The notes below the pieces were generated by a model, which was not told the DNA's origin, ran no database searches, and saw only the letters and a program-made list of their open reading frames with translations. A stretch of 63,984 bases of DNA. It comes from a virus. Its lineage: Duplodnaviria; Caudoviricetes. The stretch is taken from positions 1-63,984 of the IMG/VR virus record IMGVR_UViG_3300007609_000018; one strand, 5' to 3'. How positions within the stretch are numbered: position 1 is the stretch's first letter; each line of letters opens with the position of its first letter. Below are positions 27,469-45,705 of this stretch, piece by piece. A program made the translations under genes and the position numbers.

Positions 27469-27490
27469 TACTTTGTTTTTTGTGTTTAAT

Positions 27491-27520
27491 AAAAAATAGA
27501 GGGTTTTTACACCCTCTATT
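27491..27520 (-). terminator. rho-independent terminator after the capsid gene
   Basis: AATAGAGGG-loop-CCCTCTATT followed by a T run on the minus strand. Confidence 0.75.
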
Positions 27521-27541
27521 GAATCTAATTTATTGGTTGGA

Positions 27542-28885: not shown

Positions 28886-28898
28886 AATTTATTTTTTT

Positions 28899-29897
28899 TT
28901 ACATTAAAGAATCCAACCCAACTTTTTTATCCGTACTTATTTCTTCTTGCCTTTGTAATCCGTTTGGATTATGTAGTTCTTGATGATATTGTTCTTCTTT
29001 CTTTGAACGTACACTTTCTGCAATGGAACTGTATATTTTGTCCTTGTTTTTATAGAGATAATCAGCCTCTAACGCATACTTTAATTGTTCAACAGAACCT
29101 TCTACTCCGTTTGAAACCCAATTATTCACAATATGACCTGCCATCTCGGCTATGTCTTTTTGATCCTCTTTTGGTACTTCAAATTGAAACTCATCTGAAC
29201 CGAAACTAAAACCATTTATGCTACTTACAACTTCTGGTATCTTACCTTTCCACTCTGTTACCTTCTCGGCACTTATGGCTTGTTGCTTTTGCTCTGGTGT
29301 TTGTTTTTCTTGTAGTTTTTGATTGTATTCTTTTATTGATTTATCTGCCTTCTCGGCTTCTAAATCCAATTTTATCATTCCAATCCTAACATCTTCGTCT
29401 AATTCGTCATACTTTCCATCTTCGTTTTTAAATAATCCAAAGTCTTTCTCGATTACTTTTTTTAATTCATCTAATGACTTACTTGTTCCTTCTAGTTTCA
29501 TTGCAATTGCAACTTTATCTATTGGAGATAAATCATCTCCTTTTGATTTCTGAATCAAGTCTATTTCATTATAACTTAATCCCTTATCCAATAAATCAAT
29601 TACCGCTAATTTGTTTTCGTCTTTTACAACTCTAACGCCATCTTGAGAATATTCTTTCCCTTTTTCAATGAACTGTTTTAACTCATCTTCGGAATGTCCG
29701 AATTTTTCAGTTATATACTTTCCGTAATCAACTTCTTCGGTTTTTGGTTCTTCAGTTGGCTTGGTTTGTTGTCCCTGTCCTTGTTCCTCCGATGCAACTT
29801 CTTCCCTATTTTGTTCAGATGGTTGATTTGAGTTTGGACCTAATTGGTCTAATATACTTGTTTCATTTCCTTCTGTATTTGTGTTTTCCTCTGCCAT
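28899..29897 (-). CDS. putative scaffold protein
   Basis: acidic, coiled-coil, between portal and capsid. Confidence 0.65.
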   Translation of the reverse strand: MAEENTNTEGNETSILDQLGPNSNQPSEQNREEVASEEQGQGQQTKPTEEPKTEEVDYGKYITEKFGHSEDELKQFIEKGKEYSQDGVRVVKDENKLAVIDLLDKGLSYNEIDLIQKSKGDDLSPIDKVAIAMKLEGTSKSLDELKKVIEKDFGLFKNEDGKYDELDEDVRIGMIKLDLEAEKADKSIKEYNQKLQEKQTPEQKQQAISAEKVTEWKGKIPEVVSSINGFSFGSDEFQFEVPKEDQKDIAEMAGHIVNNWVSNGVEGSVEQLKYALEADYLYKNKDKIYSSIAESVRSKKEEQYHQELHNPNGLQRQEEISTDKKVGLDSLM

Positions 29898-29915
29898 TTT
29901 TTTGTGTATTTAAAG

Positions 29916-29923
29916 CAAATATA
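29916..29923 (-). promoter_or_regulatory. Bacteroidetes -7 element TATATTTG
   Basis: TAnnTTTG upstream of the scaffold/capsid genes. Confidence 0.55.
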
Positions 29924-29933
29924 TAATTTTTTT

Positions 29934-32156
29934 TTATTTTGTTTCGTGTTCAGCCTTTATTTTAGCTAATTCTCTTTCCTTTTCTATTTCAATTTTGGCT
30001 AACTGCTCTTCCTTTTTAACTTCTACGTCAGCTTCAAATTGTATTGTATCACGTTCTTCTTGTTTTGTGATTTGTGCTAATTGTTGCTGTTGTTCGCCTT
30101 GCACTCTTGAATTTTCTTCTGCTTTTTTCTGGTCTGCTTTCAGTTTTCTTTTAATTCTGTAAGACAATGTAGCTTCTGCAAGTTTTATATAGTTTTGGTC
30201 TATTAAATCGATTATATGCAGGTAATCATCCATTCCTATACCGCCCATTCCACCTTGCTCTGACTTAGTAAGTGCTTGTGTAGCTGCTTGTTTTATCAAT
30301 TCCCTTTGCTCTGAACTTGCTTTTTGTTCTAATCTAAGGTTGAATTTACCATTGTTTACTTCGTTGCCTATTTCAAATGTTTTTGCAATGCTTTGTCCGA
30401 ACTCTGGATAGGTATATTTTAATTTGCCTTGCTTTGCTTTAATTTGAATTTTTGAAAGTATATCTAAACACGTTTTTTCCTTTAAATAAGAATAACCGCT
30501 TACCATTGGGTGTATAGCGTTTTTAGTTCCCTCTACTGCTATTTTACCTACACCAACTAATGCTCTTTCGCCTGGATTACTTGCATCCATAAAATCATTA
30601 ATCCCTGTTACGTCTTTTATAAGTTCTATGTTTCTTGCTATGTCTGAAACTAACTCTACAAACTCATTTCCTAATCCACCTTCATCTGGTATCATTGGTG
30701 GCATTGCATTTCCATTATCATCTATTGAGGATTCTTTGCTGACTATTTTCCAACCTGTTTGTGTGGCTATTTCTAATAGTTCTTGAACTTTCATTTTTTT
30801 ACCATCTATTGTTACATTTTCAAATGCTTCTTGATAAACAGTAAACCCTTTCGGCATTGCTCTTGCCTTTGCGTTTTGTATTTTTAACCACGATAGCTGT
30901 ATTGCATCAGCAAATGGTAACATTCTCTCTAAATGACTTGTGTTTGATACCCTATAAAATTTTATAGGTAGCATACATTCTCGGGCATTATCACTATACC
31001 TTGAAATGTCTTTCATTTTTCCATAATTGTATATCCAATCACTTCCAACAATCCAACTACTTGCATAGACTGTTTTTACATCTGTTGAATATACTTCGTA
31101 GTTTTTCCTTTTACCCTCTTTCTTTTCAAACTTTTCTGGGTATATGTACTCGTTTCCGTATGCTTTTTTCTTTTTACTTTTCTTTTTATCTAATGAATAC
31201 CAAAATAGGTCTAATACTAATACCTTGCAATTATCAAATGTATCGTAATCATAAATATCGTCTGTATTTATGTATCGTGAGTTAAATAGTGATGAGTTGT
31301 ATTTTTTTGTTCTGTGTTGCTCAAATATTTCCTTGTATTGGTCGTCTGTAAAGTACCCACCGCACTCTTGTTTTAACTGCTGTATGGTTATCATTCTGTA
31401 TTCGCCTATCCTTTCTATTCCGTCTGGCTTATGACCTCTAAAACTGTCTATTAAAACGTTTACAGGATCAACGTAAGATATTCCTATTCTTTTGCCGTTT
31501 GATGTGTGAACCTTACAAGCCATTACGCCATTATCAAAAGCATCTTCTCTCATTAGTTTAGATACTTCGGACCACTCGTTTTCGTACAATACACCGTTTA
31601 TACCAACTCTTGCTGATATTTCTTGCTTTAACTCAAACTTCATATTCATAAAAAGTTCAAGTTCTTCTATTGTTTCTGGTAAATCTTCTTCGTTAATTTC
31701 TTCTCCTGCGTTCATTTTTAAACGCATTTTATCTATAAATGGCTTTAATAACTTAGTTGCCCAAATTTCCCACTTAACACTTTCTCTTTCTGCGGAAGCT
31801 GATGGATCAATGTCTGTTACTTTTATATTGTAATCCACCTTTTCCATAAACGATAAAACAATATCTCGGTACTTTGGTATTATCTTAACAATGCTATGGT
31901 CTAAATCCATAAAAGAAACTGTTTTTCCAGATTCCTCTAGTTTTGACAACCATTTTTTATACTTATCGGTTTCTTGATTTCCTTCAGCATATTTTCTGTT
32001 TTCTATCCAATCGTTTATTCTTGAGTAAATATTATTATGTCCTGTACCGTTTCTAAACGAATGATGTGCTGCTTTACAATATTTTAAACACCACTTATCG
32101 TCTTTTCTCTTTGGATCAATTAGGTGTGATGGAAATGGATGTACTTCGCTACTCAT
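29934..32156 (-). CDS. portal protein (crAss-like)
   Basis: RKYAEG.Q...YK, IIPKYRDIV, YVDPVN, DVTGIND motifs; follows terminase. Confidence 0.85.
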   Translation of the reverse strand: MSSEVHPFPSHLIDPKRKDDKWCLKYCKAAHHSFRNGTGHNNIYSRINDWIENRKYAEGNQETDKYKKWLSKLEESGKTVSFMDLDHSIVKIIPKYRDIVLSFMEKVDYNIKVTDIDPSASAERESVKWEIWATKLLKPFIDKMRLKMNAGEEINEEDLPETIEELELFMNMKFELKQEISARVGINGVLYENEWSEVSKLMREDAFDNGVMACKVHTSNGKRIGISYVDPVNVLIDSFRGHKPDGIERIGEYRMITIQQLKQECGGYFTDDQYKEIFEQHRTKKYNSSLFNSRYINTDDIYDYDTFDNCKVLVLDLFWYSLDKKKSKKKKAYGNEYIYPEKFEKKEGKRKNYEVYSTDVKTVYASSWIVGSDWIYNYGKMKDISRYSDNARECMLPIKFYRVSNTSHLERMLPFADAIQLSWLKIQNAKARAMPKGFTVYQEAFENVTIDGKKMKVQELLEIATQTGWKIVSKESSIDDNGNAMPPMIPDEGGLGNEFVELVSDIARNIELIKDVTGINDFMDASNPGERALVGVGKIAVEGTKNAIHPMVSGYSYLKEKTCLDILSKIQIKAKQGKLKYTYPEFGQSIAKTFEIGNEVNNGKFNLRLEQKASSEQRELIKQAATQALTKSEQGGMGGIGMDDYLHIIDLIDQNYIKLAEATLSYRIKRKLKADQKKAEENSRVQGEQQQQLAQITKQEERDTIQFEADVEVKKEEQLAKIEIEKERELAKIKAEHETK

Positions 32157-32160
32157 GGTT

Positions 32161-32168
32161 CAAAGATA
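32161..32168 (-). promoter_or_regulatory. Bacteroidetes -7 element TATCTTTG
   Basis: TAnnTTTG just upstream of the portal ATG. Confidence 0.45.
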
Positions 32169-32171
32169 TAA

Positions 32172-34394
32172 TTATTTTGGTTTATAAAAACTTGACATAC
32201 CTTTTGACTCCGTTTTTATCTTTTTCATTGGTAGTCCTTTTGCTACTAATGCTTTTGAACCGGAAACAAAAAAATCGTATGGTGAAAAATCATCTGGGTC
32301 CAAAGATAGTGCATCTTCTAAAAATCTAGGAAATGGACATCTAAACCCTCTTGTTTCAATATATGTGTCTGTTGATGCTACCATTCTTTCTATTTTAGCG
32401 GTTCCTGTCGTGCTTTCCCCTGGCGTTGCTCTTTGTTTTTGTTTTACCTTTCCTTTATAAGATTTATATTCTCTCTCAAACATTAAATACTTTTCATATC
32501 CTCTTTTTATAAAGTGTTCCCAAATTATTGGTACGTTAATCTCTGGGTACATTTTACAAGATAAATAAATACAGGCTTTTAACATATCTTCTGCGTACAT
32601 CTCTGGAGTTGCAGGTCTTTTCCCATATTCTAATACAAAGTTGTCTGTAATCCATTCTTCTTCGTGCTTTCCTAAATCTACATGAGGGTCGTAATATGCC
32701 CATATATGGCCCGTACCCATTGATTTTTTATTTGTTGCTACTTTTCTGTATCTGAATGGATCTGCTCCACCAACAAACTTGTCTGTGTTTACAGGATGTT
32801 TTTTACCACCATCTACTGTGTGTTTGTTTGATTCGGATTGTGGCATTATTTCCGTCAATCCTTTCATTAGCCACCCTCCGTTGTTTGTTGGCCTCCATAT
32901 TACTTTTGTATCTTCTTTATCGTCTAGCCAAACAAAATCACCTCTAACTAAATCTCTTTCTTCATCCCATACAAAGTAGTCAAGTCTTTTTTGAATTATA
33001 TCTGTATTAAATGGACAGTCTTTTGACATTGACCTAAAGGCCTCTTTTACTGTAAACGGATATTTCCTTATTTCGTTTTGCCTATCTTCTGGGTCCGTTA
33101 TGGATTCTCTAATTTCTGTTAATATTTGCTTTCCACCTTTTTCCCAATTTTTCAATTTTAATTCATCTGCATCTATTTCTTTTGATTCTACCATTTTTTC
33201 AATGGCTTTTCTTCTATATTCTCTTTGGTACTCTAATGGTTCATCTACTATTGGAATACCATATTGGTCGAATATGAAATTTGAATATGCAGGTTCAAAA
33301 AGTCTTATTAATCCACTTTGAGTTCTTCCTAGTGCTTTTATTTTATCTCTACCGCTTTGTTCCCATATTTTTTTGAATTGCGCACCGCCTTTTGCTTCTA
33401 ACTCTTCTACTGTTGTGGTTATTAGTGCTTTTCCAAAGACATAGTCATCTTTTAATAGCGTTGGTTTTACTTTATCCCATGTTTCATATACGTCTGATTT
33501 TTCAGTTTTTCCTGCCTCATCCATTCCGTATTTATATAGCTTTGCGCCATCATAAGCTGTTTCTGTGCTTGATCGATAATCTAAAAAACTATAAAGTTCG
33601 TCTGGCTCATCGTCTAAATCTATGTTTCTTCCAGAAGTTGTTGGGTTCCTAAATTCTAAAATGCTTTTAGGATTAGATGAGTTTGCAAATGTTGGCGAAA
33701 ACCAAAAGGGTAGTTTTTTCCATGCAGGTATTATTGCTTTATTCCAAACTGCTTGAGCATCTAAATCTGTTTTAGACTGCATTCCAGATAATACATTTTT
33801 CTTTCTTGTTGTTCCCTCTAAAAGTATGTTTCCTAAACGATATGTTTTCCCCACCCTTCTTCTTGTAAAGTTCACTCCTCCAAATACACTATTTTTTTTA
33901 CATACTTCATATTCCCACCACAACCAAAAGTCATTATCTGTCATTCTAAAATTAGGACTTCCAATATCTAATGTGTAATAGTTTAGATAGTACCATGCTA
34001 TTCCTGGAATATGAATTGGTTTTCCATAAATGTACTGCCAAACACCATGTATTCTTTTATGCCATTGTTCTTCTATCCATGCACCAATTTCTCTATCTTT
34101 TTTGGCTAACTCTATCTGAATGTTTCTTAATGGATTTTCTTTTTGTTCTTTTTTATTTTGCTTTAAGAAGTCTTTTTTTGCTTGTTCGTATAGCTTTGGT
34201 AATTTGGGGTGCTGTTCTTCTTTTACAAAGTATTGATTTTCTTTTTTTAAACCAAAGTTTTGAATATCCTCTGGCTTTGGATGGTCTGGAAGTTTTATAT
34301 TGTAAGGTAATACCCCATCTATATCTTCAGATATTGTATGTATCGGATTGAAATCTTGGTAATCTAGTATTTTACTATTTATTATGATGCCCAT
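32172..34394 (-). CDS. terL: terminase large subunit
   Basis: RRRVGKT Walker A, YGMDEAGK Walker B, GGADPF RNase H-like nuclease motif. Confidence 0.9.
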   Translation of the reverse strand: MGIIINSKILDYQDFNPIHTISEDIDGVLPYNIKLPDHPKPEDIQNFGLKKENQYFVKEEQHPKLPKLYEQAKKDFLKQNKKEQKENPLRNIQIELAKKDREIGAWIEEQWHKRIHGVWQYIYGKPIHIPGIAWYYLNYYTLDIGSPNFRMTDNDFWLWWEYEVCKKNSVFGGVNFTRRRVGKTYRLGNILLEGTTRKKNVLSGMQSKTDLDAQAVWNKAIIPAWKKLPFWFSPTFANSSNPKSILEFRNPTTSGRNIDLDDEPDELYSFLDYRSSTETAYDGAKLYKYGMDEAGKTEKSDVYETWDKVKPTLLKDDYVFGKALITTTVEELEAKGGAQFKKIWEQSGRDKIKALGRTQSGLIRLFEPAYSNFIFDQYGIPIVDEPLEYQREYRRKAIEKMVESKEIDADELKLKNWEKGGKQILTEIRESITDPEDRQNEIRKYPFTVKEAFRSMSKDCPFNTDIIQKRLDYFVWDEERDLVRGDFVWLDDKEDTKVIWRPTNNGGWLMKGLTEIMPQSESNKHTVDGGKKHPVNTDKFVGGADPFRYRKVATNKKSMGTGHIWAYYDPHVDLGKHEEEWITDNFVLEYGKRPATPEMYAEDMLKACIYLSCKMYPEINVPIIWEHFIKRGYEKYLMFEREYKSYKGKVKQKQRATPGESTTGTAKIERMVASTDTYIETRGFRCPFPRFLEDALSLDPDDFSPYDFFVSGSKALVAKGLPMKKIKTESKGMSSFYKPK

Positions 34395-35023
34395 TGTTCT
34401 GGTGTTACCTTGTATGTGTGTTTCTCTTCAACATCAAAGCTACCAACAAAATTTTGCAAATTAATATCTTTTTGAAATAATCCTTCTGCAAGGTCGTCTA
34501 TTGACTTACGAACTTCGGCTAATTTATTCATTACTTTTATCTTTTTATCTGATAGACTTAAAGCATCTTCTTTATCATCTTCTTTATTGTTTAGTGATTC
34601 TAATATTTGACTGTGCGATTCGATCATAAAACACATTGTCATAAAATCTAAACTATCTTGCATTTTTAACCATCTCAAAATTAAGTGGTTTACTATCTTG
34701 TTTTGGCCTGCTATTATTTCCATTACTTGCTCTGTAAACATTCCACTTTTATTTGGCTTATATCCTGCTAAATTCATAGCTTGTTTCTTTCTTTCGATTA
34801 TATCTACCAATTCCTTTTTTACTAATGGACTTTTTTTATCATAACACAATACAATAAATCTAATAATCTTATTTGCTGATATGCCTTTTGGCAGCTTGTG
34901 CAATATCCCAATAAATATGTTTTTTAAGTCTTTAAACTCTTCTACGTTTGTTATATCACGACCTACTTGTACGCTCATAACATTAAACTTCATTTCTCTA
35001 AATTCTGTTGGGTTGTAGTTCAT
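34382..35023 (-). CDS. putative terminase small subunit
   Basis: helical 213-aa ORF overlapping the terL start; YDKKSPL motif. Confidence 0.45.
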   Translation of the reverse strand: MNYNPTEFREMKFNVMSVQVGRDITNVEEFKDLKNIFIGILHKLPKGISANKIIRFIVLCYDKKSPLVKKELVDIIERKKQAMNLAGYKPNKSGMFTEQVMEIIAGQNKIVNHLILRWLKMQDSLDFMTMCFMIESHSQILESLNNKEDDKEDALSLSDKKIKVMNKLAEVRKSIDDLAEGLFQKDINLQNFVGSFDVEEKHTYKVTPEQWAS

Positions 35024-35040
35024 TTTAGTATTATTTTTGA

Positions 35041-35067
35041 TATTAACTATATTCGGTAGTTACCTAT
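35041..35067 (+). other. attI-like cassette boundary site
   Basis: TTAACTATATTCGGTA-GTTACCT; GTTACCT 35059-35065 is complementary to AGGTAAC 35982-35988. Confidence 0.55.
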
Positions 35068-35087
35068 AATAATTTTTAAAAACTGCC

Positions 35088-35921
35088 CTAACTCAAACTC
35101 TGAAAAAAATGCTTAACAACTGTCACAGTCCATCCATTTCCTAAAAGGTTCTTTCTTATATTCTCACTATACCCTTTTGTATAGTCTTTTGGAATACCTT
35201 GCAATAACTCCCAATAACTACTGTTTGCCATATAAAATTCATTGTTTTTTTGGTAAAATATACTTGCAGATGTCGTTTGTCTATTTCCTGTTGATGTTAA
35301 TGTTGGTGCATTTTTCAATTCACTTAAATTATAAGGGTTAAAGAAGTTGGGTAATTTTTTAAACATAGATGTTTTTCTTTTAACAAAAGGAACAGGGTTT
35401 ACTTTATTAAATAATTCACTACTGAACTTAATTGGAATATTCTTTTTTTCATAATCTGTAAACGGTATATTAGTCCAGTAATACCTTGGTCTATTTTGCC
35501 CGGTAAAATACTTAGAGTTTATTTTTATTGGCTCAACACCTAATTTCTCGTTAATAATATTTAGCCATTCTTTTTTCATAGAAACATTTTCTAAAAAAAA
35601 ATATTTAGGTTTTAAAAATTCTTTTGCCTTTACAAACTCAAAAAACAACTTACTTCTTTTGTCGTAAAAATTTAATTGTTTACCAATACTACTAAACCCT
35701 TGACAGGGACTTCCACCTATTAATAAATCAATTTTTGGTAATTTATTTAATTTAGCAGAACAAACATCCCCCATTTGTTTGGTGCTTGGGTAATTTCTCA
35801 AAGTTACTTCTATCGCTTTTTTATCTATTTCATAAGCAAAATAATTATCTATTTTTATATTTAATTTGTCTAAAGCAATTTGCCCACAACTGATTCCATC
35901 AAAATAGCTTACTACATTCAT
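35088..35921 (-). CDS. DNA (cytosine-5)-methyltransferase
   Basis: SYFDGI, GGSPCQGFS, LENV, QNRPRYYW, LGNGW motifs. Confidence 0.92.
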   Translation of the reverse strand: MNVVSYFDGISCGQIALDKLNIKIDNYFAYEIDKKAIEVTLRNYPSTKQMGDVCSAKLNKLPKIDLLIGGSPCQGFSSIGKQLNFYDKRSKLFFEFVKAKEFLKPKYFFLENVSMKKEWLNIINEKLGVEPIKINSKYFTGQNRPRYYWTNIPFTDYEKKNIPIKFSSELFNKVNPVPFVKRKTSMFKKLPNFFNPYNLSELKNAPTLTSTGNRQTTSASIFYQKNNEFYMANSSYWELLQGIPKDYTKGYSENIRKNLLGNGWTVTVVKHFFQSLS

Positions 35922-35979
35922 TTTATTTATGTTTTATTTGCCCTCGTACATCACGCAGGGCGGTTTTAAAAAATTACAG

Positions 35980-36078
35980 ACAGGTAACAATGTATATAAA
36001 AAATAGCTACTTTCAGTTGTCAAGTAATCCTTAACAACTGCTCTTTTATATCGCTACTTTACATACACAATAAAGTTT
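35980..36078 (+). repeat. attC-like imperfect inverted repeat #2
   Basis: GGTAAC-aat-GTATATAAAAAATAGC ... GCTACTTTACATACAC-aataaa-GTT. Confidence 0.7.
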
Positions 36079-36147
36079 AAAAACACAGAGGCAATTCAAC
36101 AACCTAAACCAAACTTTAAAAAAACATGACGAAAAACCGCCCCTGTG

Positions 36148-36428
36148 TTACTCTTTTACTGCATATCCCCACTTCCTAACTTTCTTAATAGCGTTCTTTA
36201 AATTCAACGCCTGGAAATATAAACAGTTTTTTCTACATTTACCCTATGTGATACACTACCATTAAACTTCGCTAAAGTGTCTTTTAAATCAATTTCTAAC
36301 ACCTTTTGTGTAGAACCTTGATACTTCCAACCCTTTAATCCTTTTCTTAGCCTTAAAGATGCAAATTTAACTTGCTTTCGCTGTTCAGCTTTCTTTACTA
36401 TCTCATCTTTTTGGTGGTTTTCAAACAT
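36148..36428 (-). pseudogene. hypothetical protein, apparently frameshifted at an A6 run (~36227-36232)
   Basis: annotated ORF ends at 36204; one added A gives ...VEKNCLYFQALNLKNAIKKVRKWGYAVKE, ending at 36148. Confidence 0.4.
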
Positions 36429-36434
36429 AATATT

Positions 36435-37070
36435 TTATTTAACAGATAACAACCTATCAATTCCTATTGCAAACCCTACTCCTCCATCATACTCTCCTCC
36501 TCCACAAATCTGTTTTGAACTTCCTAATTTATCATAAACAATTTCAAAACCTTTACCATCTTTATAGTAGTCCAACCCCCTACTTACGTTTCTATTTACT
36601 TTAAAACCCTCTATTCCAAAATATTTAATCAAATCTATTGAAATAGAAATTAAATATTCCAAAAGATCGCTTTTTGGATTTATTACTTCAACACCTAATT
36701 GTGTAAATTGCCTATATCTTCCGGCTTGTGGCCTTTCCCCTCTAAAACATTCTTGAACATAAAATAAATTAACATCTTTTTCATACTTAAATTGAGTTTT
36801 TGATAATTTCTGAATAACAGATGTATATTCTGGTGCAAGACAAATATTTCTATTTCCTCTATCAGTAAAGTTAAACATTAAATTATTATTTTCTACACCC
36901 ACTTTATCTTCAAATATATCTTGCATTTGAATAATTGGTATTGATATTTCTTGAAACCCATGGCTTGTTAAATATGTAGCCATATCAGAAATTACACTTC
37001 TTTTCTCATTTCCTAAAAGTATTCTTGTTCCTTTGTAAGTTGTCTTTTTAATCTCTAACATATTTCTCAA
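36435..37070 (-). CDS. stand-alone histidyl-tRNA synthetase catalytic core (no anticodon-binding or insertion domain)
   Basis: KGTR, GFQEISIPI (motif 1), LAPEYT, FRGERPQAGRYRQFTQLGVE (motif 2), RGLDYY, GGGEYD, GFAIGIDRL (motif 3); only 211 aa. Confidence 0.88.
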   Translation of the reverse strand: MRNMLEIKKTTYKGTRILLGNEKRSVISDMATYLTSHGFQEISIPIIQMQDIFEDKVGVENNNLMFNFTDRGNRNICLAPEYTSVIQKLSKTQFKYEKDVNLFYVQECFRGERPQAGRYRQFTQLGVEVINPKSDLLEYLISISIDLIKYFGIEGFKVNRNVSRGLDYYKDGKGFEIVYDKLGSSKQICGGGEYDGGVGFAIGIDRLLSVK

Positions 37071-37482
37071 TTTCAGCTTGAATTTTCCTATTCATTTCAA
37101 TATCTGAATCGTGAAAACCTATTAATGCATCACGACTTCCTAATAACCTTACTTCATCTCTACGTAAAAGTTCATATAAATAGCTTATAAAGTCTTTGTC
37201 ATTACCCTTTATTTTAGCATTTGTAAAGTTTCTAATTCTTTTTTGAACATCAACACTATCATTAATAACAACAGACAAATTGCCTACATATTCAAACTTT
37301 TCAATAGGTTCTTCTGACGAATCTACTTTAGGTATAAACTTATAAGCTGCAATTAGAAACTCTAAGGCCTCGTTTTCATTTTTAGCAAATTTTTTATCTA
37401 CAAAACAAAATCTTTTCGTAACTAAATCATTAAACCTGTAACCCTCTTTTTCTAAACTATCAAACTGCCATACTGTTATCAT
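37048..37482 (-). CDS. hypothetical protein
   Basis: 144-aa ORF in operon. Confidence 0.6.
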   Translation of the reverse strand: MITVWQFDSLEKEGYRFNDLVTKRFCFVDKKFAKNENEALEFLIAAYKFIPKVDSSEEPIEKFEYVGNLSVVINDSVDVQKRIRNFTNAKIKGNDKDFISYLYELLRRDEVRLLGSRDALIGFHDSDIEMNRKIQAEIEKYVRD

Positions 37483-37484
37483 AA

Positions 37485-37700
37485 TTACTTAAAATTTTTG
37501 TTATAACTTTCTTCAGTAATTAACCATTGCTTTGATTTATTATTCGGATCACTCGCTATTACATCGCCTAACTTTGGTGAACCACTAATAAAATCACTTT
37601 CACTTATCTTTACTGTTACTCCTTCTGTAATAATACTTCCCTTTGTGTTAAAGTGAATTATATCCTTTTCAGTTACTTTTCTTATTTCTGGAATTACCAT
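37485..37700 (-). CDS. hypothetical phage protein
   Basis: GSPKLGDVIASDPNN..QWLI..SY..NF motif, 71 aa. Confidence 0.6.
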   Translation of the reverse strand: MVIPEIRKVTEKDIIHFNTKGSIITEGVTVKISESDFISGSPKLGDVIASDPNNKSKQWLITEESYNKNFK

Positions 37701-37702
37701 TT

Positions 37703-37894
37703 CTACAATTCTATTTTTATACTAACAACAATATGTGTGCTTGGCCATTCACTATCCTCACGTTCAATATGAACTTCACAATCATCAATCAATAAATCAT
37801 TTTCTTCCTCGAAATCTTTTATCAATCTTTCAATTTGGTTAGAAAGTTTTATTCTTTTTTTTCTTATTTCTTCTATTGTCTTAGACATACTCAA
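37703..37894 (-). CDS. hypothetical protein
   Basis: 63-aa ORF in operon. Confidence 0.55.
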   Translation of the reverse strand: MSMSKTIEEIRKKRIKLSNQIERLIKDFEEENDLLIDDCEVHIEREDSEWPSTHIVVSIKIEL

Positions 37895-38441
37895 TTACCC
37901 CCACTATGTTATTCCTATTTACTCTAAAAACATCTGTATCACCCATTATCTCACTATGAGCAAATGGTACATCACAATCTACTTCCGTTGCTATATGCTG
38001 CCCTTTCTCAAACCCATATCCATCATACAAAACTTTAAACTGATTTTTCTTATACCCTGGCTTTAACTCTAACTCTGAAACTCTCTTCTCTTCTATCTTC
38101 TCACACAAAACATAATCATTTATAAACACCGTTTTTCCTTCTCGTTTAACAAAAAACAATGATTCTTTATGCAAGATCGCTTTACGCTTTCTATCTTCCC
38201 CAACAGAATATTTATAATCAATTATCCTATTCTCTTCCTTGGCCCGAATAGTCGCTAAATAATGAAAATAAACTTCATCCCCCTCTAATACTTCCGGATT
38301 ACCACTCTCTAAACAAATCCCCTTAATTGGCGCATACTTACATGGCTCATAACTCGTAGCAATGTAAATCCCAGAATCAGTTTTCATCTCATTCTCCGTA
38401 TCTACAAACTCAACCAATATGTTCTCGTGTAATAATTGCAT
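37881..38441 (-). CDS. GroES-like co-chaperonin with tandem domains
   Basis: LHENILVE...KTDSGIYI...GDEVYF, then a second NDYVLCEKI...NIVGVI repeat. Confidence 0.65.
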   Translation of the reverse strand: MQLLHENILVEFVDTENEMKTDSGIYIATSYEPCKYAPIKGICLESGNPEVLEGDEVYFHYLATIRAKEENRIIDYKYSVGEDRKRKAILHKESLFFVKREGKTVFINDYVLCEKIEEKRVSELELKPGYKKNQFKVLYDGYGFEKGQHIATEVDCDVPFAHSEIMGDTDVFRVNRNNIVGVIEYV

Positions 38442-38560
38442 AAAGCCTTAAATTAAAAAAACCTTGCCAGATGTAGGAATTAAAAAATCTATTGTGGAAG
38501 TAGTTTTTTTGCTCTGACAAGGTTCAATATGTTTTCTATCTTCCATCATAATTCCTCACA

Positions 38561-38590
38561 CAAACATAAAACCTTTTTTTCAATTTCCAA
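38561..38590 (-). promoter_or_regulatory. leftward Bacteroidetes-type promoter (-33 TTG / -7 TATGTTTG)
   Basis: minus strand reads TTGGAAATTGAAAAAAAGGTTTTATGTTTG, upstream of the GroES-like gene. Confidence 0.55.
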
Positions 38591-39240
38591 CTATTTTTTT
38601 AAAATTATTTTTTTTCACTCATATATATTCACACGCACACACGCTCTTAGTTATATATCTCTATTCTAATTACTACTTACTTAGTATAATACAAAAAATA
38701 CTAAGTATAATTAGGAAAAAAGAAAAAGAAAAAATATATTAAAAAAGAAAAAGAAAAAAGACAACCAAATTCCCACAGTTAAAATCACATTATTCCCACT
38801 TTAAAAAAATAACTTCTAAGCAATTAAAACCACTTCCCCCTATCTATCACACCAACTACTCAATAAAACCCCTCAAATCAAATAAAAAACACTAAAACAC
38901 CCATTTTTTGAAACTCAACAATAACAATACTTTAGGCAACTTCCCCCACCGTATGAACACCAACTTTTTATCCCACCAATCAAACAAACATTTATATCAC
39001 TCAAATTAACCACTAATCAAACCCAATAACAAACACTCTTAACCGTATACACTTTTTCTGCGCATAGGTGCTGTGAGTGAGTGATAGGTATATATAGGGG
39101 GGAGGGTGTCAAGGAATGGAAACGGGATCCTAAAACCCACCCCCACCGAAAACAGAACCAAATAACGAAACGCAAAGCCAACAATGCCAAAGGTCCAGAC
39201 TAACCAATGAACACAGACAAACCAATATTTTTAGAAACCT

Positions 39241-39268
39241 ATTTAACATAATATAAATTATCTACCAT
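39241..39268 (-). other. dif-like XerCD recombination site
   Basis: minus strand ATGGTAGATAA-TTTATA-TTATGTTAAAT; perfect XerD arm, 6-bp spacer, XerC-like arm ending ATAA. Confidence 0.75.
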
Positions 39269-40061
39269 ATTTTTATTGTGTAACTCATTGATTTACAGGA
39301 AACTAAACCAAAGGGAATATTCAAAATCCTTGAAACTCTGACAAGGTGGCACAATTCAACGGATAAATAACTCATTCAGATAGAAAACTAAACTATCTAA
39401 ATTTCAATTCTAAGCGCATTAAATTACCTTACCTATGCTATACCATTACTAAAAACTAAACTCTCGATATACGCTAAATTTGATACCTTTTTGAACGTTT
39501 GCACGGACACGCTGACTGTTAAAAGAAATGAATACCGCTTAAATACTACATTTTCTTTGTTTTTTTACTTTTATTCTAATGTTTAATATTTAGGTTTTTA
39601 AATAGTTGTTTTTGTGATTGGTTTTTTTTCTTTTTTTTGTTTGCTTTACTTACTCTCTATGCTTACTCTATCGCTTCGCTCTTCTTTCCTTTGTTTGTTG
39701 GGGTTTGCGTTATGTTGGTTGTTTGGCTTATTTGCTTGTTTTTATTGCTTGTATGGCATTTACTTTGTTTTGGTGGTGGATTAGTTCAGATGATTTATTT
39801 TACTTCTTTAGTCGGTCCGTTTTGAGCGCTCTCTTCGTTTCCTTTCCTTACTCCCTTTCGTTCCCTTTCCCTTTACTTGCTTTATTCTTTATGTATTAAT
39901 TATTTATTTTAAATTCTTTTGCATTGGTTTTCAGTTAGTTACAAGTTTTTATAAAGTTTTTATTCTCGTTTGTTTAGTTTTTTGAATTGTATGGGCTTAT
40001 ATTTACAACCGTTAAGGCATTAAGCCGATTTTAATATTTATAACAAGTAAATAAAAAGATT

Positions 40062-40283
40062 ATGAGAACTACAAAAGTTTATAGAGCAACATTAAGAAAA
40101 GATTTAAACGAAGATAATAAAAAAGGGAAAACTTTGAAGTTGGAGTTTGAACTTAATAATAAAGTTTCTGTATTATCAAATACAGAATGGGATTGGTATC
40201 TAGACACTATAACCGTAGATGATGTAGATAATATGTTTGAAAATCTTACTTTCTTAAAAACTAACACATGGAGAGAATTATGA
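40062..40283 (+). CDS. early hypothetical protein
   Basis: first ORF of the plus-strand cluster, A-rich leader. Confidence 0.6.
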   Translation: MRTTKVYRATLRKDLNEDNKKGKTLKLEFELNNKVSVLSNTEWDWYLDTITVDDVDNMFENLTFLKTNTWREL

Positions 40284-40525
40284 AATACTTACTAATTATA
40301 CCGATACTATTTTTATTAATTTCAAACGCATCAAATTCAGTTGTCAAAAGGCAAGCTATATTAAACCATATAATGATTGGCGAAGATTATAAAGGTTCTG
40401 GTTTTGAAATTTGGCGAATAAATTATAAGGAGAATTGTGTATCTCACATCGCTTACTACTATTCAAACACAAAAGAAATAGTTTATAACGATTATCAAGA
40501 AATTCCTTTACACTTAAACAAATAA
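40268..40525 (+). CDS. hypothetical protein with hydrophobic N-terminus
   Basis: MKYLLIIPILFLL. Confidence 0.55.
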   Translation: MERIMKYLLIIPILFLLISNASNSVVKRQAILNHIMIGEDYKGSGFEIWRINYKENCVSHIAYYYSNTKEIVYNDYQEIPLHLNK

Positions 40526-40553
40526 AATTTTTTACACAAATAAATAAAATATT

Positions 40554-40913
40554 ATGAACAATTCAATAAGAAAAGAACTACTAGAACACATTTTAGACAA
40601 AATAAGCGATGGTGTAATTGATGACACAAATAAAGATGAATGGCATTTTTATTGTTTTAACGAAGATTATTACTGCATCGGTTATTACAAATGCTCACAA
40701 TGGCTAAAAAGGCACAATTTGGGCGAATTTGAATCTGCTGCAATTTGTACTCAATACGAAATAGATAACTTTGGCGAATGTGGTAAAGTATATGATAATT
40801 CAGAAAAGGTAGTAAATATGCTTGCTTACATATACGGCGAGGAGCTTTTTTCTGATTTAGATTGTGAAACAATAGAGGAATTGCAAGAAAAGATAGAAGA
40901 AGAAATAAATTAA
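40554..40913 (+). CDS. Ocr-like acidic anti-restriction DNA mimic (putative)
   Basis: 119 aa, acidic; H..FNEDYY.IGYY...QWL...YEIDNFGE...EKVVNMLAYIYGEE pattern; early position. Confidence 0.55.
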   Translation: MNNSIRKELLEHILDKISDGVIDDTNKDEWHFYCFNEDYYCIGYYKCSQWLKRHNLGEFESAAICTQYEIDNFGECGKVYDNSEKVVNMLAYIYGEELFSDLDCETIEELQEKIEEEIN

Positions 40914-41012
40914 ACCACCATTTTAACCGCTTTTACCCTTGCACCGCTATTTTATAGTATTGGGCAAGGGTTAAGGCAGTAGAAGTAATATTTTTAACAA
41001 AAAAATAAAACA

Positions 41013-41204
41013 ATGAAACACACAGAGATAACAAAAGAAGCGTTTAAAGCTATTGTAACCAACGAACAAGAATCTTTTGATTATAACGATAAAGGAGAAC
41101 TATTCGAGAAAACATATTTTAAAGCAAAAGGCATGAAACTACTAACTATATACAACTTTGTAAGCAACACAAAGCAGTACTACATACAAGATATTAACTA
41201 TTAA
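41013..41204 (+). CDS. hypothetical protein
   Basis: ORF in early cluster. Confidence 0.6.
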   Translation: MKHTEITKEAFKAIVTNEQESFDYNDKGELFEKTYFKAKGMKLLTIYNFVSNTKQYYIQDINY

Positions 41205-41227
41205 TTTAACTTAAAAAATAAAACAAG

Positions 41228-41608
41228 ATGAAACTAAAAGCAACGATAGAAAAATTAACAAATTTTGCTAATAAAGATAATATTCAAAAAGATATAAATA
41301 GATATTTCTTTACAATACACACTCCTAACGGAGAAACATTAAGGGTAGCTAAGTCAAGTTTTAAGGAGATTAAAAATTCTGATGATTTTAAGGGATGGTT
41401 GGCAAATTGTGAAGGCAAAGTAACAAGATTATTATTGACTTTATTCGATTTTGATTTGGAATTTATAGAGAATAAAAAGCCACATATTGACTCGTATGGA
41501 AAATATCTAATATATACAAAGGAACACGAAGAAAAGTATGAAGAGTGGTTAAAAACGACTAATTCAAAAGATACATCATTAAGCTATTTTTTAACATTTA
41601 AAAACTAA
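41228..41608 (+). CDS. hypothetical protein
   Basis: ORF in early cluster. Confidence 0.6.
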   Translation: MKLKATIEKLTNFANKDNIQKDINRYFFTIHTPNGETLRVAKSSFKEIKNSDDFKGWLANCEGKVTRLLLTLFDFDLEFIENKKPHIDSYGKYLIYTKEHEEKYEEWLKTTNSKDTSLSYFLTFKN

Positions 41609-41614
41609 AACAAG

Positions 41615-41833
41615 ATGAAACTATTAAAAGTAGATTATTTAAACGAAATACCTAAAAAAATTAACAATTACACTTTAATAAATGTAATAAATAAAAAATC
41701 CTTCAATGAAGATACTTTTATAAGACTATCCAAAGGTTATAAATATAAAGTGTTTAGAACTATAATATCATCGTTAGATGAAATATCCCAAGATTATAAC
41801 TACGGAGCTTTATATCTTATATTAACAGACTAA
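41615..41833 (+). CDS. hypothetical protein
   Basis: ORF in early cluster. Confidence 0.55.
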   Translation: MKLLKVDYLNEIPKKINNYTLINVINKKSFNEDTFIRLSKGYKYKVFRTIISSLDEISQDYNYGALYLILTD

Positions 41834-41876
41834 AAAACAGATAGAAAAAAAATCTAATAACCAATAAAAATACACT

Positions 41877-42119
41877 ATGAAAACTTTTAAAAGAACAAGT
41901 TTACCGCAGTCAATAAATTACAACGGAGAAACTTATACTCCCAATATGACCTCCTCCGCTCAACTTGACACCAAAAGAGAAGCAAACAAACTAAAATCAC
42001 AAGGCGAAAAAGTTATTTTAGTTGAGGTATTGAGTAAAAACCTAAGAGGTAAAAAGGACCTTTATAATTTACCATACAAGCCGACTAAATGGATATTCAC
42101 TAAAAAACTAAATAAATAG
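41877..42119 (+). CDS. hypothetical protein
   Basis: ORF in early cluster. Confidence 0.6.
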   Translation: MKTFKRTSLPQSINYNGETYTPNMTSSAQLDTKREANKLKSQGEKVILVEVLSKNLRGKKDLYNLPYKPTKWIFTKKLNK

Positions 42120-42124
42120 AAATT

Positions 42125-42712
42125 ATGATAACTATAAAAACAAATATTTACACGTTTGAAGAACTAACGGAAGAACAAAAAGAAAAAGCTATTGATAGCG
42201 TAAGAAACAAATACTATGATCATAACGATTTTGCAGAGTGGGCTATTGATGATTGCTCACTATTTGAACCACCACAAAAAGAGTTAGAAGAACTTTTTGG
42301 TAAAGATTACAAATTCCCTTTATTAGAAAACACTAGGGAAAAACTATTTTTTTCACTAGGTAGAGATAGATATATAGATATTTCTAACGCAATGCAAATT
42401 TCAGATGATACCTACTTTTTAAAATGGCTAGGGATTAATAAATATGATTTTTTAAATGATGATGGCTGCCCTGTTTTAGACTATAAAATAGGTAAAGACA
42501 CAATAGAATTTTATACTAATGATTTTAATGTTGAGTTTACAAATGAACAAGAAACTATTTTAGAAAAAGCCAAAGAAAAATTTGAAGAACATTGTGAAAA
42601 TATCTTAAATAGAATTGAATATGATATTGATTATAGGTTTACCGATGAAGCTATCATAGAAGATATACACGCAAACGATTATCAATTTACTGAACAAGGT
42701 AATTTGTATTAA
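42125..42712 (+). CDS. acidic early protein (YTFEEL...EKA / DEAI.E.I.ANDY.FTE.G family)
   Basis: terminal motifs of a family I recall from phage and plasmid leading regions; highly acidic. Confidence 0.55.
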   Translation: MITIKTNIYTFEELTEEQKEKAIDSVRNKYYDHNDFAEWAIDDCSLFEPPQKELEELFGKDYKFPLLENTREKLFFSLGRDRYIDISNAMQISDDTYFLKWLGINKYDFLNDDGCPVLDYKIGKDTIEFYTNDFNVEFTNEQETILEKAKEKFEEHCENILNRIEYDIDYRFTDEAIIEDIHANDYQFTEQGNLY

Positions 42713-42820
42713 AACACTACAACCCCAAAAACCCCTTAAAATTTACGTTCTAAGCAACTTTTAACTAAAAAAGGTACAAACACCTTACAAAACATTTTTA
42801 ACCGATTAAAACTAGAAATA

Positions 42821-43630
42821 ATGACAAACGAAATACAAAAAAAAGACGTAATAAACGTAGCAAATTCATTAAATATAAAATTAACTGAAGAACAAGTAAC
42901 GGAAGTTTTAAAATTATATGATGATAAAGCGGATGATCTACCGAACGAAAACTTTACCTACATTTTAGAAACTATTTTAGTGGATGATATGGGTTTAAGT
43001 CAAAAACCAATAAAGAAAACCTCTAAACACCTAAGAACTACATTTGAAAACCTTGAAAAAGGAATAAAAAACCAATTTAAGAAACTTACAAAAGAACAAG
43101 AGATAATTTTCATTGAACAATCTATGTTTCCAAACTATCAAGAATATAAAGAAACGATGACAGAAATGGATGATGAAAGCGATGATTTTATTGAAAGAAT
43201 AGACTTGTTTAATTTAAGAGAAAAACTCCCAATGATAGATTTTTATAACTCTGGATTTCAAGAAAAAACAGGGCATATATACAAAATTAGAGGGCAATTC
43301 ATAGATGTTATAGAGCAAGGAGATGACGAACTAATTACAATAAGATTAAAAGACGTTGTAAAAACTTCTCATAAAATTTCAATTATTGAATTTATCGAAT
43401 CAAATATGGAATGTAAAGCAACACGCATAGACAAATTAATAGAAGGTGCTGAAGAATGGTACCCTAAATATGATAGATGCGATGAAATAGCCTTTATTTT
43501 AGATGTTCTGCAAACCTATGAAGATGGAGAAGTAAAACTTCACAACGAACCAAGCCTATATAACGCACTAGAGAGTAGTTTAATTACGGCAGAGTACATA
43601 AACACCAACCACCACCCAAAACACGCTTAA
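42821..43630 (+). CDS. hypothetical acidic protein
   Basis: 269-aa ORF. Confidence 0.65.
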   Translation: MTNEIQKKDVINVANSLNIKLTEEQVTEVLKLYDDKADDLPNENFTYILETILVDDMGLSQKPIKKTSKHLRTTFENLEKGIKNQFKKLTKEQEIIFIEQSMFPNYQEYKETMTEMDDESDDFIERIDLFNLREKLPMIDFYNSGFQEKTGHIYKIRGQFIDVIEQGDDELITIRLKDVVKTSHKISIIEFIESNMECKATRIDKLIEGAEEWYPKYDRCDEIAFILDVLQTYEDGEVKLHNEPSLYNALESSLITAEYINTNHHPKHA

Positions 43631-43631
43631 A

Positions 43632-43883
43632 ATGGATATTTTGATAGAATTTAGAAAAGCAGTAGGATCCTCTACAATGCTAACTATTGATAGCAATAAA
43701 ATAGAACTAAGTTATACAGACGAAAGAGGAAAGATTAAAATATGGTTTGAAACAGAAAACCGAAGTGCATTTTTACATTTTAACCCTCAATCTAAATTAG
43801 CTTCTGAATATGGAGATTTTTGGAAACACCCAAAGGAAGTAGTAAACAACAAAATTTTTAAACAATTAAACTTAAAGAAATGA
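43632..43883 (+). CDS. hypothetical protein
   Basis: ORF in early cluster. Confidence 0.55.
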   Translation: MDILIEFRKAVGSSTMLTIDSNKIELSYTDERGKIKIWFETENRSAFLHFNPQSKLASEYGDFWKHPKEVVNNKIFKQLNLKK

Positions 43884-44101
43884 AAAAACCAATACCAAAA
43901 TTTGACAAGAACAACAATTTAAGAATAGGAATGAAAATTATAGGCTATGTAAGACAGTCCAGAAAAACAGGAGGATATGCTTATTTAATAGGTAAACCAA
44001 GCGATATAAGCGTGGCAAGTTTTACAAGTAATAAGGAACCATTCACAGAGGAACAAGCAAAGCAAAGATTAATAAACGCAGTAACGCCACTACCGTTTTA
44101 A
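43880..44101 (+). CDS. hypothetical protein
   Basis: ATGA overlap with the previous ORF. Confidence 0.55.
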   Translation: MKKPIPKFDKNNNLRIGMKIIGYVRQSRKTGGYAYLIGKPSDISVASFTSNKEPFTEEQAKQRLINAVTPLPF

Positions 44102-44117
44102 GAATAAGTAATACAAA

Positions 44118-44567
44118 TTGACAACGAAAAAACAAAAACTAGAAAAGATGAAAACAACTACAAATTCAGAAAAATATATTGAATCAATATATAGAAGAAA
44201 GAAGAACGAGGAGCAAAATGCAATAGAATTGTTTGAACAAAGAACCAACATAAAGACAACCAAAAAGTACGGAAAACATTACATAGTAATTGATGAAGTA
44301 TTTACGGACAAGCCAACAAGACAAATATCTTTATTTTTTAAATATATTGGCTATGGTTCAGTAATTTTTTTAGGTAACATAAACGGAAAAACCAAAGAGA
44401 AGTTGAGATACAAAAATACTGAAATTCAAAAAGAAACTGAAAGCCTAATATTAAAACTTAATTACATAAACCAAGAAGTTGAGCAGGCAACACAAGAAGT
44501 GTTTAAAACACATGGAAAACCAAAAACACCAATAGGAATTATAAGGGATAGAATTTTTTATAACTAA
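44118..44567 (+). CDS. hypothetical protein
   Basis: ORF in early cluster (start may be the internal MKTTT). Confidence 0.55.
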   Translation: MTTKKQKLEKMKTTTNSEKYIESIYRRKKNEEQNAIELFEQRTNIKTTKKYGKHYIVIDEVFTDKPTRQISLFFKYIGYGSVIFLGNINGKTKEKLRYKNTEIQKETESLILKLNYINQEVEQATQEVFKTHGKPKTPIGIIRDRIFYN

Positions 44568-44607
44568 AAACCAAAACAATTAACTAATCAATTTAAAACT
44601 ATATAAA

Positions 44608-44814
44608 ATGGAAACAGGAATAATACAAGTAAATTTAATTGATGGAGGTAAATATTTTGTACACTTCAAAAATAAAAACCAAAAAAATAGAATACTATTA
44701 TCTTTAAAAGAAAACGCTGAAAAAGTTTCTGAATGGGGGGTATTAGTAAATGGCATTCACAGCACAAAAGATTTTGAATCAATTATAAAAAACAGACAAA
44801 AACTAAAACAATGA
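44608..44814 (+). CDS. hypothetical protein
   Basis: ORF in early cluster. Confidence 0.55.
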   Translation: METGIIQVNLIDGGKYFVHFKNKNQKNRILLSLKENAEKVSEWGVLVNGIHSTKDFESIIKNRQKLKQ

Positions 44815-45307: not shown

Positions 45308-45308
45308 A

Positions 45309-45702: not shown

Positions 45703-45705
45703 CAA

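Follow-up and report, generated by a model that had tools for sequence, protein, structure and literature searches.

Can an aminoacyl-tRNA synthetase that has been reduced to its catalytic core still charge its tRNA? This question is raised by a gene at positions 36435..37070, on the minus strand, of a 63,984-nucleotide Caudoviricetes genome (IMG/VR record IMGVR_UViG_3300007609_000018), the whole of which is referred to here as the window. The gene encodes a protein of only 211 amino acids that resembles histidyl-tRNA synthetase (HisRS) and is called mini-HisRS below. At the sequence level it is confirmed as a HisRS catalytic core without the insertion domain or the anticodon-binding domain. 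We favour, with a probability of roughly 0.6, the view that it is a functional, minimal, dimeric HisRS that ignores the anticodon and charges tRNA-His via the acceptor end. The fold, family, selection, residue retention, and genomic context were computed, and from these we infer adenylation, tRNA charging, and dimerisation.

Domain architecture of the mini-HisRS

Profile and structure searches (Pfam, NCBIfam, and structure matches) identify the protein of 211 residues that is read from a TTG codon. The likelier start, however, is the ATG at codon 4 (37061), which yields 208 residues and is the same as in the database copy P0001 (208 residues, 100% identical). The protein matches Pfam tRNA-synt_His at 7e-19, and LAPEYT, FRGERPQAGRYRQFTQLGVE, RGLDYY, GGGEYD, and the motif 3 sequence GFAIGIDRLL are all found in it. 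On the minus strand, like the gene itself, these elements lie as follows. The motif 1 region GFQEISIPIIQM (residues 38-49; 36924..36959) forms the centre of the predicted dimer interface, and its P45 is kept in at least 90% of sequences. It is followed by PEYT, a histidine-binding motif of the TXE type (residues 80-83; 36822..36833), and by motif 2 with its loop (residues 109-128; 36687..36746), to which the ATP contacts and the acceptor-end contacts are assigned. The HisA motif RGLDYY (residues 164-169; 36564..36581) and the HisB motif GGGEYD (residues 190-195; 36486..36503) were placed by alignment, and motif 3 (residues 199-208, with R206; 36447..36476) ends 3 residues from the end of the protein.

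The alignment with E. coli HisRS (1htt) falls into two pieces, in which query residues 30-134 correspond to chain residues 28-136 and query residues 149-198 to chain residues 244-291. The alignment with T. thermophilus HisRS is similarly divided (12-159 with 6-162, and 161-206 with 256-311). E. coli residues 137-243 (about 107 residues, the insertion domain) and T. thermophilus residues 165-257 have no counterpart in mini-HisRS. Therefore, the helical insertion domain, which lies between motif 2 and HisA, is cleanly absent, and the junction at residues 152-160 (36591..36617, minus strand) marks the site where canonical HisRS carries about 90-107 additional residues. The C-terminal anticodon-binding domain of the HGTP type is absent as well, since there is no PF03129 match in mini-HisRS and the chain stops directly after motif 3. 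Two smaller deletions remove 3 residues before MFNF and about 11 residues between GGGEYD and motif 3.

The core-only architecture with motifs 1-3 and the His-specific motifs had been described in an earlier, sequence-only reading of this DNA, which did not give the strand, and the profile and structure alignments agree with it. Two of its remarks fared less well. The R>E change in GGGRYD carries no meaning, since the same position also varies in full-length HisRS (R in 29, S in 10, and E in 9 of 67 sequences). The term 'urzyme-like' is an overstatement, since the protein is a complete class II core with HisA, HisB, and a predicted dimer and not an excerpt of 120-145 residues.

Retention of catalytic and acceptor-end residues

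Residue conservation was followed in 150 representative sequences, of which 45 were used as mini proteins (185-250 residues) and 67 as full-length proteins (390-470 residues); the other 38 were left out (16 shorter than 185 residues, 9 of 251-389 residues, and 13 longer than 470 residues). The histidine and ATP ligands and the His-specific motifs are kept in 35-43 of the 45 mini representatives. By position, these are P80 (42), E81 (43), T83 (40), R110 (43), E112 (35, plus 8 with D), R113 (25, plus 12 with K), Q115 (38), R118 (39), R120 (40), Q124 (43), E128 (42), R164 (37), Y169 (38), Y194 (38), and R206 (41).

In T. thermophilus HisRS, R115, Q117, R120, and R122 contact G-1 and the acceptor end of the tRNA, and R7 contacts the acceptor stem (Tian 2015, PMC4357726). 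Their equivalents in the query are R113 (R or K in 37 of 45), Q115 (38 of 45), R118 (39 of 45), and R120 (40 of 45), respectively, and R7 corresponds to K13, where R or K occurs in 28 of 45 representatives and a gap in 7. We take the E. coli HisRS numbering to be R113, R116, Q118, R121, R123, R259, and R311.

HisZ, the HisRS-derived partner of ATP phosphoribosyltransferase, served as a control, for which the host HisRS, HisZ, and mini gene were taken from each of three alpha-proteobacterial genomes. The ERPQxGRYR loop was lost in all three HisZ proteins and the motif 3 arginine in two of them, whereas both were kept in 5 of 5 mini proteins. The HisZ proteins have 384-406 residues and retain the insertion region. 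According to a review, HisZ has no adenylation activity. Thus, the mini family keeps the catalytic histidine and ATP residues that HisZ has lost, as the sequence-only reading had noted for the window protein, and with them the acceptor-stem contact residues.

Family, origin, and selection

A search for proteins of near length returned 1527 proteins of 116-370 residues at E<=1e-3; among the 120 matches listed, 110 have 205-215 residues, with 67-100% identity. In an exhaustive search of representatives at 50% identity, about 45 clusters of 185-250 residues outrank the first full-length HisRS, each matching in one stretch. Genes of the same length occur in phage records, namely those for 210 and 211 residues in uncultured phages of 642 and 635 kb, and Sinorhizobium phage Phosso has a 196-residue member annotated as histidyl-tRNA synthetase. 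IMG/VR holds 96 mini-HisRS loci on contigs of 4-676 kb. Among the 82 complete open reading frames (ORFs) there, 73 have 190-265 residues, 8 have 145-185, and 1 has 277; an 83rd locus (L059) is incomplete, as its ORF runs past the contig end. In a cellular survey with one genome per species (185,579 species), 8 of the best 80 matches are of the mini type, including 5 from alpha-proteobacteria and 1 from a Flavobacterium metagenome-assembled genome, and the remainder are full-length. Same-length phage homologues, which the sequence-only reading had suggested looking for, are thus numerous in the protein collection, the phage records, and IMG/VR. Overall, judged by its sequences, the mini-HisRS family is a large, conserved, core-only lineage of proteins with about 205-215 residues, and most members come from phages of 40 to 676 kb.

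A tree was built with a quick IQ-TREE run on 214 shared columns. One branch, with a length of 1.09 and an approximate likelihood ratio test (SH-aLRT) value of 100, parts 46 mini rows from 67 full-length rows, which points to a single origin of the mini family. The ratio of non-synonymous to synonymous substitution rates (dN/dS), another check named in the sequence-only reading, is 0.05-0.13 for mini-HisRS pairs with dS of 0.3-0.6, which indicates strong purifying selection; pairs that contain the window protein are saturated at synonymous sites.

Databases label the family either as HisRS or, often, as 'ATP phosphoribosyltransferase regulatory subunit'. No description of a viral core-only HisRS was found in the literature searched; the supplementary phage-synthetase tables of Al-Shayeb 2020, which lie outside that search, may include members. 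One metagenomic homologue of 564 residues (P0122) carries an intein with a LAGLIDADG endonuclease exactly within the histidine-binding motif (PEY|T).

Predicted fold and dimer

The AlphaFold2 model, built from a family alignment of 57 rows, has a mean predicted local distance difference test score (pLDDT) of 92 and a predicted template modelling score (pTM) of 0.89. In Foldseek, the top PDB matches are E. coli HisRS-adenylate structures, with a template modelling score (TM) of 0.85 on the query and an E value of 5e-17, so that the comparison with HisRS proposed in the sequence-only reading came out in its favour. Short pyrrolysyl-tRNA synthetases (PylRS) follow with TM values of 0.70-0.72.

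The prediction with two copies scored 0.87 against 0.00 for the best control, with at least 98% contact agreement between runs and a partner pLDDT of at least 87. Among proteins of solved structure, 20 of 30 pairs and 1 of 23 single chains attain this mark. The predicted interface is of the class II type and comprises residues 7-24, 40-49 (motif 1), and 66-78. Since HisRS dimers have already been solved, the result may reflect memory or likeness. Mini-HisRS is therefore predicted, from these models, to form a class II homodimer.

Pairing with phage tRNA-His in Rhizobiales

The mini-HisRS genes of large phages are clustered in islands with genes for tRNAs, further synthetases, and RNA ligases. 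The tRNA genes were counted in 63 non-redundant loci, which remained from the 83 after removal of 20 duplicates (at least 90% identical). There are tRNA genes within 8 kb in 36 of these loci, and a tRNA-His gene in 22. Among the tRNA-His genes in phage loci, 27 of 29 encode G at position -1, most of them with C73.

The significance of this pairing is clearest in hosts that do not use G-1. Rhizobiales have a tRNA-His without G-1 together with a divergent HisRS, and the C. crescentus HisRS fails to charge E. coli tRNA (Yuan 2010, PMC3064791). Host tRNA-His genes were located by sequence pattern and by BLAST with the Azospirillum tRNA-His. In Pararhizobium sp. BT-229, position -1 of the host tRNA-His is T, with U72 and A73, and in the host HisRS (508 residues) the canonical RGGR and ERPQxGR are replaced by DDDE and EKPGPGR. 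Besides this enzyme, the only HisRS-like genes in the genome are HisZ and the mini gene. The latter has retained the canonical loop and belongs to an array of 15 tRNA genes, in which a tRNA-His with G-1 and C73 lies 3.3 kb upstream of it. By its sequence type, the mini gene is the sole HisRS of the G-1-recognising kind in the Pararhizobium genome. A similar arrangement is found in phage Phosso (recorded host, S. meliloti), in which a G-1:C73 tRNA-His gene lies 275 nt upstream of the mini gene. We take S. meliloti to be a member of Rhizobiales, and its lack of G-1 rests on the statement made for the order. Charging of the phage-type tRNA-His in Rhizobiales hosts would depend on the mini enzyme. 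Mini genes also occur in Thalassospira and Azospirillum, whose own tRNA-His is of the ordinary G-1:C73 type; therefore, the pairing argument holds for the Rhizobiales cases only.

The Pararhizobium locus (contig 3, about 194-204 kb; L093, also L204 and L170) is part of a chromosome-sized contig with islands that hold at least 21 extra tRNA genes. One of these has a GTG anticodon, T at -1, and G73, and another has its ATG anticodon in an 8-nt loop. An LpxC homologue, a Clp-like AAA+ ATPase, and mini-HisRS lie beside the extra tRNAs.

Proposed mechanism and alternative explanations

In the proposed mechanism, the class II core would bind ATP and histidine and form histidyl-adenylate. The motif 2 loop, the N-terminal basic residue, and the partner subunit would hold the acceptor end of a G-1:C73 tRNA-His, and the histidine would be transferred to A76, while the anticodon would never be read. 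In large phages, mini-HisRS would accompany the phage tRNA genes and could pair self-sufficiently with the phage tRNA-His, a pair that would be indispensable where the host histidine system is without G-1. In the 64-kb phage, it would provide extra histidylation capacity for the host tRNA-His during infection, independently of the host enzyme. The idea of the sequence-only reading that the anticodon domain can be spared because tRNA-His identity lies in the acceptor stem agrees with the Pararhizobium comparison and with the literature, in which HisRS is described as charging 8-bp microhelices that carry G-1:C73. The insertion-domain contacts R197 and K209 are dispensable in T. thermophilus HisRS (Tian 2015, PMC4357726).

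Several observations weigh against an active tRNA-charging enzyme. The E. coli catalytic domain alone has about 0.6% of the aminoacylation efficiency (Tian 2015, PMC4357726, citing Augustine & Francklyn 1997), and according to Ding 2020 the E. coli core fragment has background activity only; unlike the truncated E. coli core, the mini form has no insertion domain either. Since that core is a poor enzyme, the mini family must compensate, work slowly, or use histidyl-adenylate otherwise. The trans-subunit Gly72'Gly73' forms the G-1 pocket of HisRS; at this site, GG occurs in just 3 of the 45 mini representatives versus 38 of 67 full-length ones, and the subfamily of the window protein has GN (89 of 117). 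Glu64 is essential in T. thermophilus HisRS (Tian 2015, PMC4357726), and the corresponding position is occupied by L in the query and by Q in 17 of the 45 mini representatives. The protein scores 141.2 bits against NCBIfam hisS (TIGR00442; 4e-41), below the equivalog cut-off of 286.75 bits, and 89.8 bits against hisZ (TIGR00443; 1.7e-25; a further hisZ score given is 73.5 bits), below the cut-off of 271.65 bits. Regarding genomic context, no tRNA genes were found in the 64-kb window phage, and 27 of the 63 non-redundant loci (about 43%) have no tRNA gene within 8 kb. Adjacency to tRNA-His is not significant either, as the nearest tRNA is tRNA-His in 5 of 36 loci versus 2.7 expected (P = 0.12).

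Several of these observations would be accounted for if mini-HisRS adenylates histidine but passes it to a non-tRNA acceptor (a small molecule, a protein, or a nucleic-acid modification), or mainly makes nucleotides of the diadenosine tetraphosphate (Ap4A) type, like other truncated synthetase paralogues. Mini-HisRS has neither of the two accessory domains that bind tRNA, and the glycines of the G-1 pocket and the counterpart of Glu64 show weak conservation. In addition, charging of tRNA by the truncated E. coli core is poor, and about 43% of the loci, like the window phage, have no tRNA gene nearby. However, the acceptor-end contacts (equivalents of T. thermophilus R115, Q117, and R122) are as conserved as the catalytic residues, and they are lost in HisZ. 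There is no conserved partner or carrier gene, as each neighbour family is limited to at most 7 of the 64 non-redundant loci; the neighbours are enriched for translation genes and not for biosynthesis genes; and the pairing with a G-1 tRNA-His in Pararhizobium and Phosso would be left unexplained. Overall, a non-tRNA acceptor seems an unlikely, though not negligible, explanation. Considerably less probable is a non-catalytic regulator or decoy that acts as a HisZ-like partner of the host ATP phosphoribosyltransferase, or as a heterodimer with the host HisRS that alters charging or stress signalling. The frequent regulatory-subunit label in databases, the class II dimer interface that is predicted to be intact, and the match to hisZ would agree with such a role, but the ATP and histidine catalytic residues, which real HisZ has lost, are near-invariant under strong purifying selection, and real HisZ proteins are far longer and keep the insertion region. 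The hisZ score is not only far under its cut-off but also lower than the hisS score. Moreover, no HisG (PF01634) match was found in the window phage, whereas the control of this search was positive in 14 of 14 genomes. HisZ identity was rejected on the score, the retained catalytic residues, and the lack of HisG.

The idea of a decaying, functionless fragment of a captured cellular hisS has next to no probability left. The protein is half as long as the cellular enzyme and scores under the family cut-offs, as a fragment might. However, there are hundreds of intact homologues of the same length on a single branch apart from full-length HisRS, with low dN/dS values, a confident compact fold, and whole modules cleanly excised, and the family and selection data refute this explanation. 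The sequence-only reading had named decay and a lack of same-length homologues as signs that would speak against it; what was found is a large same-length family under purifying selection.

Returning to the minimal anticodon-blind synthetase, mini-HisRS most likely works like HisRS. It nevertheless departs from the curated family in three features, as it has neither an insertion domain nor an anticodon domain and scores under the cut-off. A more far-reaching version, to which we give somewhat less than even odds, is that the family represents the smallest natural aminoacyl-tRNA synthetase (about 185-215 residues), which would need no accessory domain for full competence and would not read the anticodon. 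With the phage G-1:C73 tRNA-His, it would then form a portable, self-contained histidine-decoding module that is carried between hosts, including orthogonal ones. In tRNA-less phages, anticodon blindness might, on the same version, also allow mini-HisRS to use tRNA-His that is damaged or fragmented, in concert with the RNA ligases of the phage.

The window phage and the mini-HisRS locus

The window record is a complete or near-complete phage genome (IMG/VR class 'linear', CheckV 100%). It encodes a large terminase, a portal protein, a virion structural protein, a primase, DnaB, RecT, two C5 DNA methylases, and exonucleases of the YqaJ and DnaQ types. Two ORFs of 3231 and 1706 residues (4149-13844 and 16424-21544, minus strand) make up 23% of the genome. 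The two C5 cytosine DNA methylases lie at 35088-35921 and 51496-52602, also on the minus strand. The first of these (277 residues) matches only profile positions 1-113 of 324, and therefore its target-recognition half is divergent or shortened. A megablast search of window positions 26000-46000 against phage records gave zero matches, and PHROGs has no family for the mini-HisRS protein (best E 0.11). A search for sequencing runs that contain this DNA listed one DNA data set, which may be its source, and no RNA data set.

Upstream of mini-HisRS, on the same strand, lies an ORF of 144 residues with no assigned function (37048..37482), whose end overlaps the start of mini-HisRS in the same operon; across the 83 loci, it has a partial homologue in one only (L005). 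A downstream ORF of 74 residues, also on the minus strand and with no assigned function (36204..36428), begins 6 nt past the mini-HisRS stop codon. It is followed by a weak terminator-like hairpin (36128-36141), of a kind found at 1 site versus 0.7 expected. Promoter-like sites are no commoner in the window than in shuffled sequences (19 versus 18.1). Three genes upstream of mini-HisRS, a protein of 186 residues (37881-38441, minus strand) matches Cpn10/GroES over residues 1-69 with an E value of 2e-4, just above the cut-off.

Genomic neighbourhood in other phages

Among the 16 window ORFs within 5 kb, mini-HisRS alone recurs across the 83 loci, and the mini-HisRS gene is mobile among unrelated phage genomes. 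The Pfam tally of neighbours used 149 of 191 candidates. These close neighbours include 7 RNA ligases, 6 Clp_N proteins, 9 other synthetase-domain matches, and 1 formyltransferase; the neighbouring phage synthetases that were checked retain their own anticodon domains. No other HisRS homologue was found besides the mini gene in 5 huge-phage genomes, and no stand-alone HGTP anticodon domain (PF03129), as would be expected of a split-enzyme partner, in the window phage (G000), W01, or W02.

The three Clp_N neighbours that were checked are Clp_N-HD fusions. They lie directly downstream of mini-HisRS (L068 8611-9663, L071 8728-9711, and L074 8695-9669) and consist of 324-350 residues with a double Clp_N and an HD_4 domain, which is an HD domain of the RelA/SpoT type. 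The fusion could act like a (p)ppGpp hydrolase that counters the stringent response. In a Thalassospira xianhensis contig (L088 1798-4122), a protein of 774 residues combines a kinase (AAA_33), a phosphoesterase, and an RNA ligase of the T4 Rnl1 type; it lies just upstream of a 9-tRNA array and mini-HisRS, flanked by gyrase B-like and topoisomerase IV A-like genes. By its domain composition, this fusion looks like a complete tRNA heal-and-seal enzyme. Together with the 7 RNA ligases, it gives contextual support for a possible link between mini-HisRS and tRNA repair. In a 508-kb phage contig, a single-chain protein of 366 residues that resembles phenylalanyl-tRNA synthetase (PheRS) adjoins mini-HisRS (L046 8654-9754). 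It combines a class II core with an FDX-ACB anticodon domain, an architecture that to our knowledge is otherwise known from mitochondrial PheRS.

The phage tRNA genes have two further features. The sequence A-T-G, of which the final G is G-1, exactly precedes 27 of 29 phage tRNA-His genes, and the copies in the Thalassospira and Pararhizobium islands are alike; in Thalassospira and Azospirillum, G-1 of the host tRNA-His genes follows C-G instead. The A-T-G may be a 5' processing determinant that keeps G-1. The loci with tRNA-His are L001, L003, L011, L012, L026, L030, L032, L043, L046, L056, L059, L060, L062, L063, L073, L075-L077, and L081-L083, and also L088 (4640) and L093 (2560). In the arrays of huge phages, many tRNAs have 84-92 nt although their isotypes normally have short variable arms, and RNA ligase genes lie nearby. 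Examples are L012 7820-7909, L026 6029-6118, L030 5690-5775, and L032 6690-6778, and others are found for Lys, Trp, Met, Asn, Cys, and Ile in L003, L013, L030, L046, L049, and L056. It is possible that these long tRNAs carry insertions or introns.

Implications

If mini-HisRS is active, it would be a natural and selected answer to the question of how small a class II synthetase can be, which has otherwise been approached through engineered fragments and urzymes. It would also explain the use of a G-1-type tRNA-His by phages in hosts without G-1, and it would offer genetic-code engineering a very small, anticodon-blind histidine synthetase with cognate phage tRNAs. In addition, it would correct a widespread database label, as many members are named HisZ-like regulatory subunits.

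Comparison with known systems

Bacterial HisRS (E. coli, 1KMM and 2EL9; T. thermophilus, 4RDX with tRNA-His) shares with mini-HisRS the class II core fold, motifs 1-3, HisA and HisB, the motif 2 loop of the G-1/C73 type, and a dimer through motif 1, which is predicted for the mini form. Mini-HisRS is half as long, without the insertion and C-terminal anticodon domains; in addition, it has short deletions in two other loops, its G-1 pocket loop has diverged, and it branches apart from all 67 sampled full-length enzymes. HisZ is likewise derived from HisRS and has no anticodon-binding domain, but it keeps the insertion region, works with HisG, and has lost the adenylation and tRNA-contact residues that mini-HisRS keeps.

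The engineered E. coli HisRS catalytic fragment (Augustine & Francklyn 1997, cited in Tian 2015) and the HisRS urzymes (119-145 residues, Li et al. 2011) show that a core without the anticodon domain can still activate histidine and weakly charge tRNA. They are excerpts made in the laboratory, which reach about 0.6% efficiency or perform activation only, whereas mini-HisRS is natural and under selection. The E. coli fragment in Ding 2020 (residues 1-326) retains the insertion domain, while mini-HisRS is a complete core without it. Designed class II urzymes contain motifs 1 and 2 with or without motif 3, have no specificity motifs, and are monomeric; mini-HisRS has 208-211 residues with HisA and HisB and a predicted dimer. 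The C. crescentus type of HisRS and tRNA-His, found in alpha-proteobacteria without G-1, shows that nature has two histidine charging systems that are orthogonal to each other (Yuan 2010). This system reads the anticodon, A73, and U72, and its HisRS is enlarged (508 residues in Pararhizobium); mini-HisRS represents the opposite extreme and is co-resident beside a G-1:C73 tRNA-His.

The short PylRS without an N-terminal domain (273-278 residues; M. alvus and ISO4-G1) is also a small natural class II core. Besides the similarity in fold, it matches the query in sequence over the full length (residues 7-211 with 43-251). Short PylRS enzymes ignore the anticodon. They serve another amino acid and another tRNA, are about 65 residues longer, and are non-viral.

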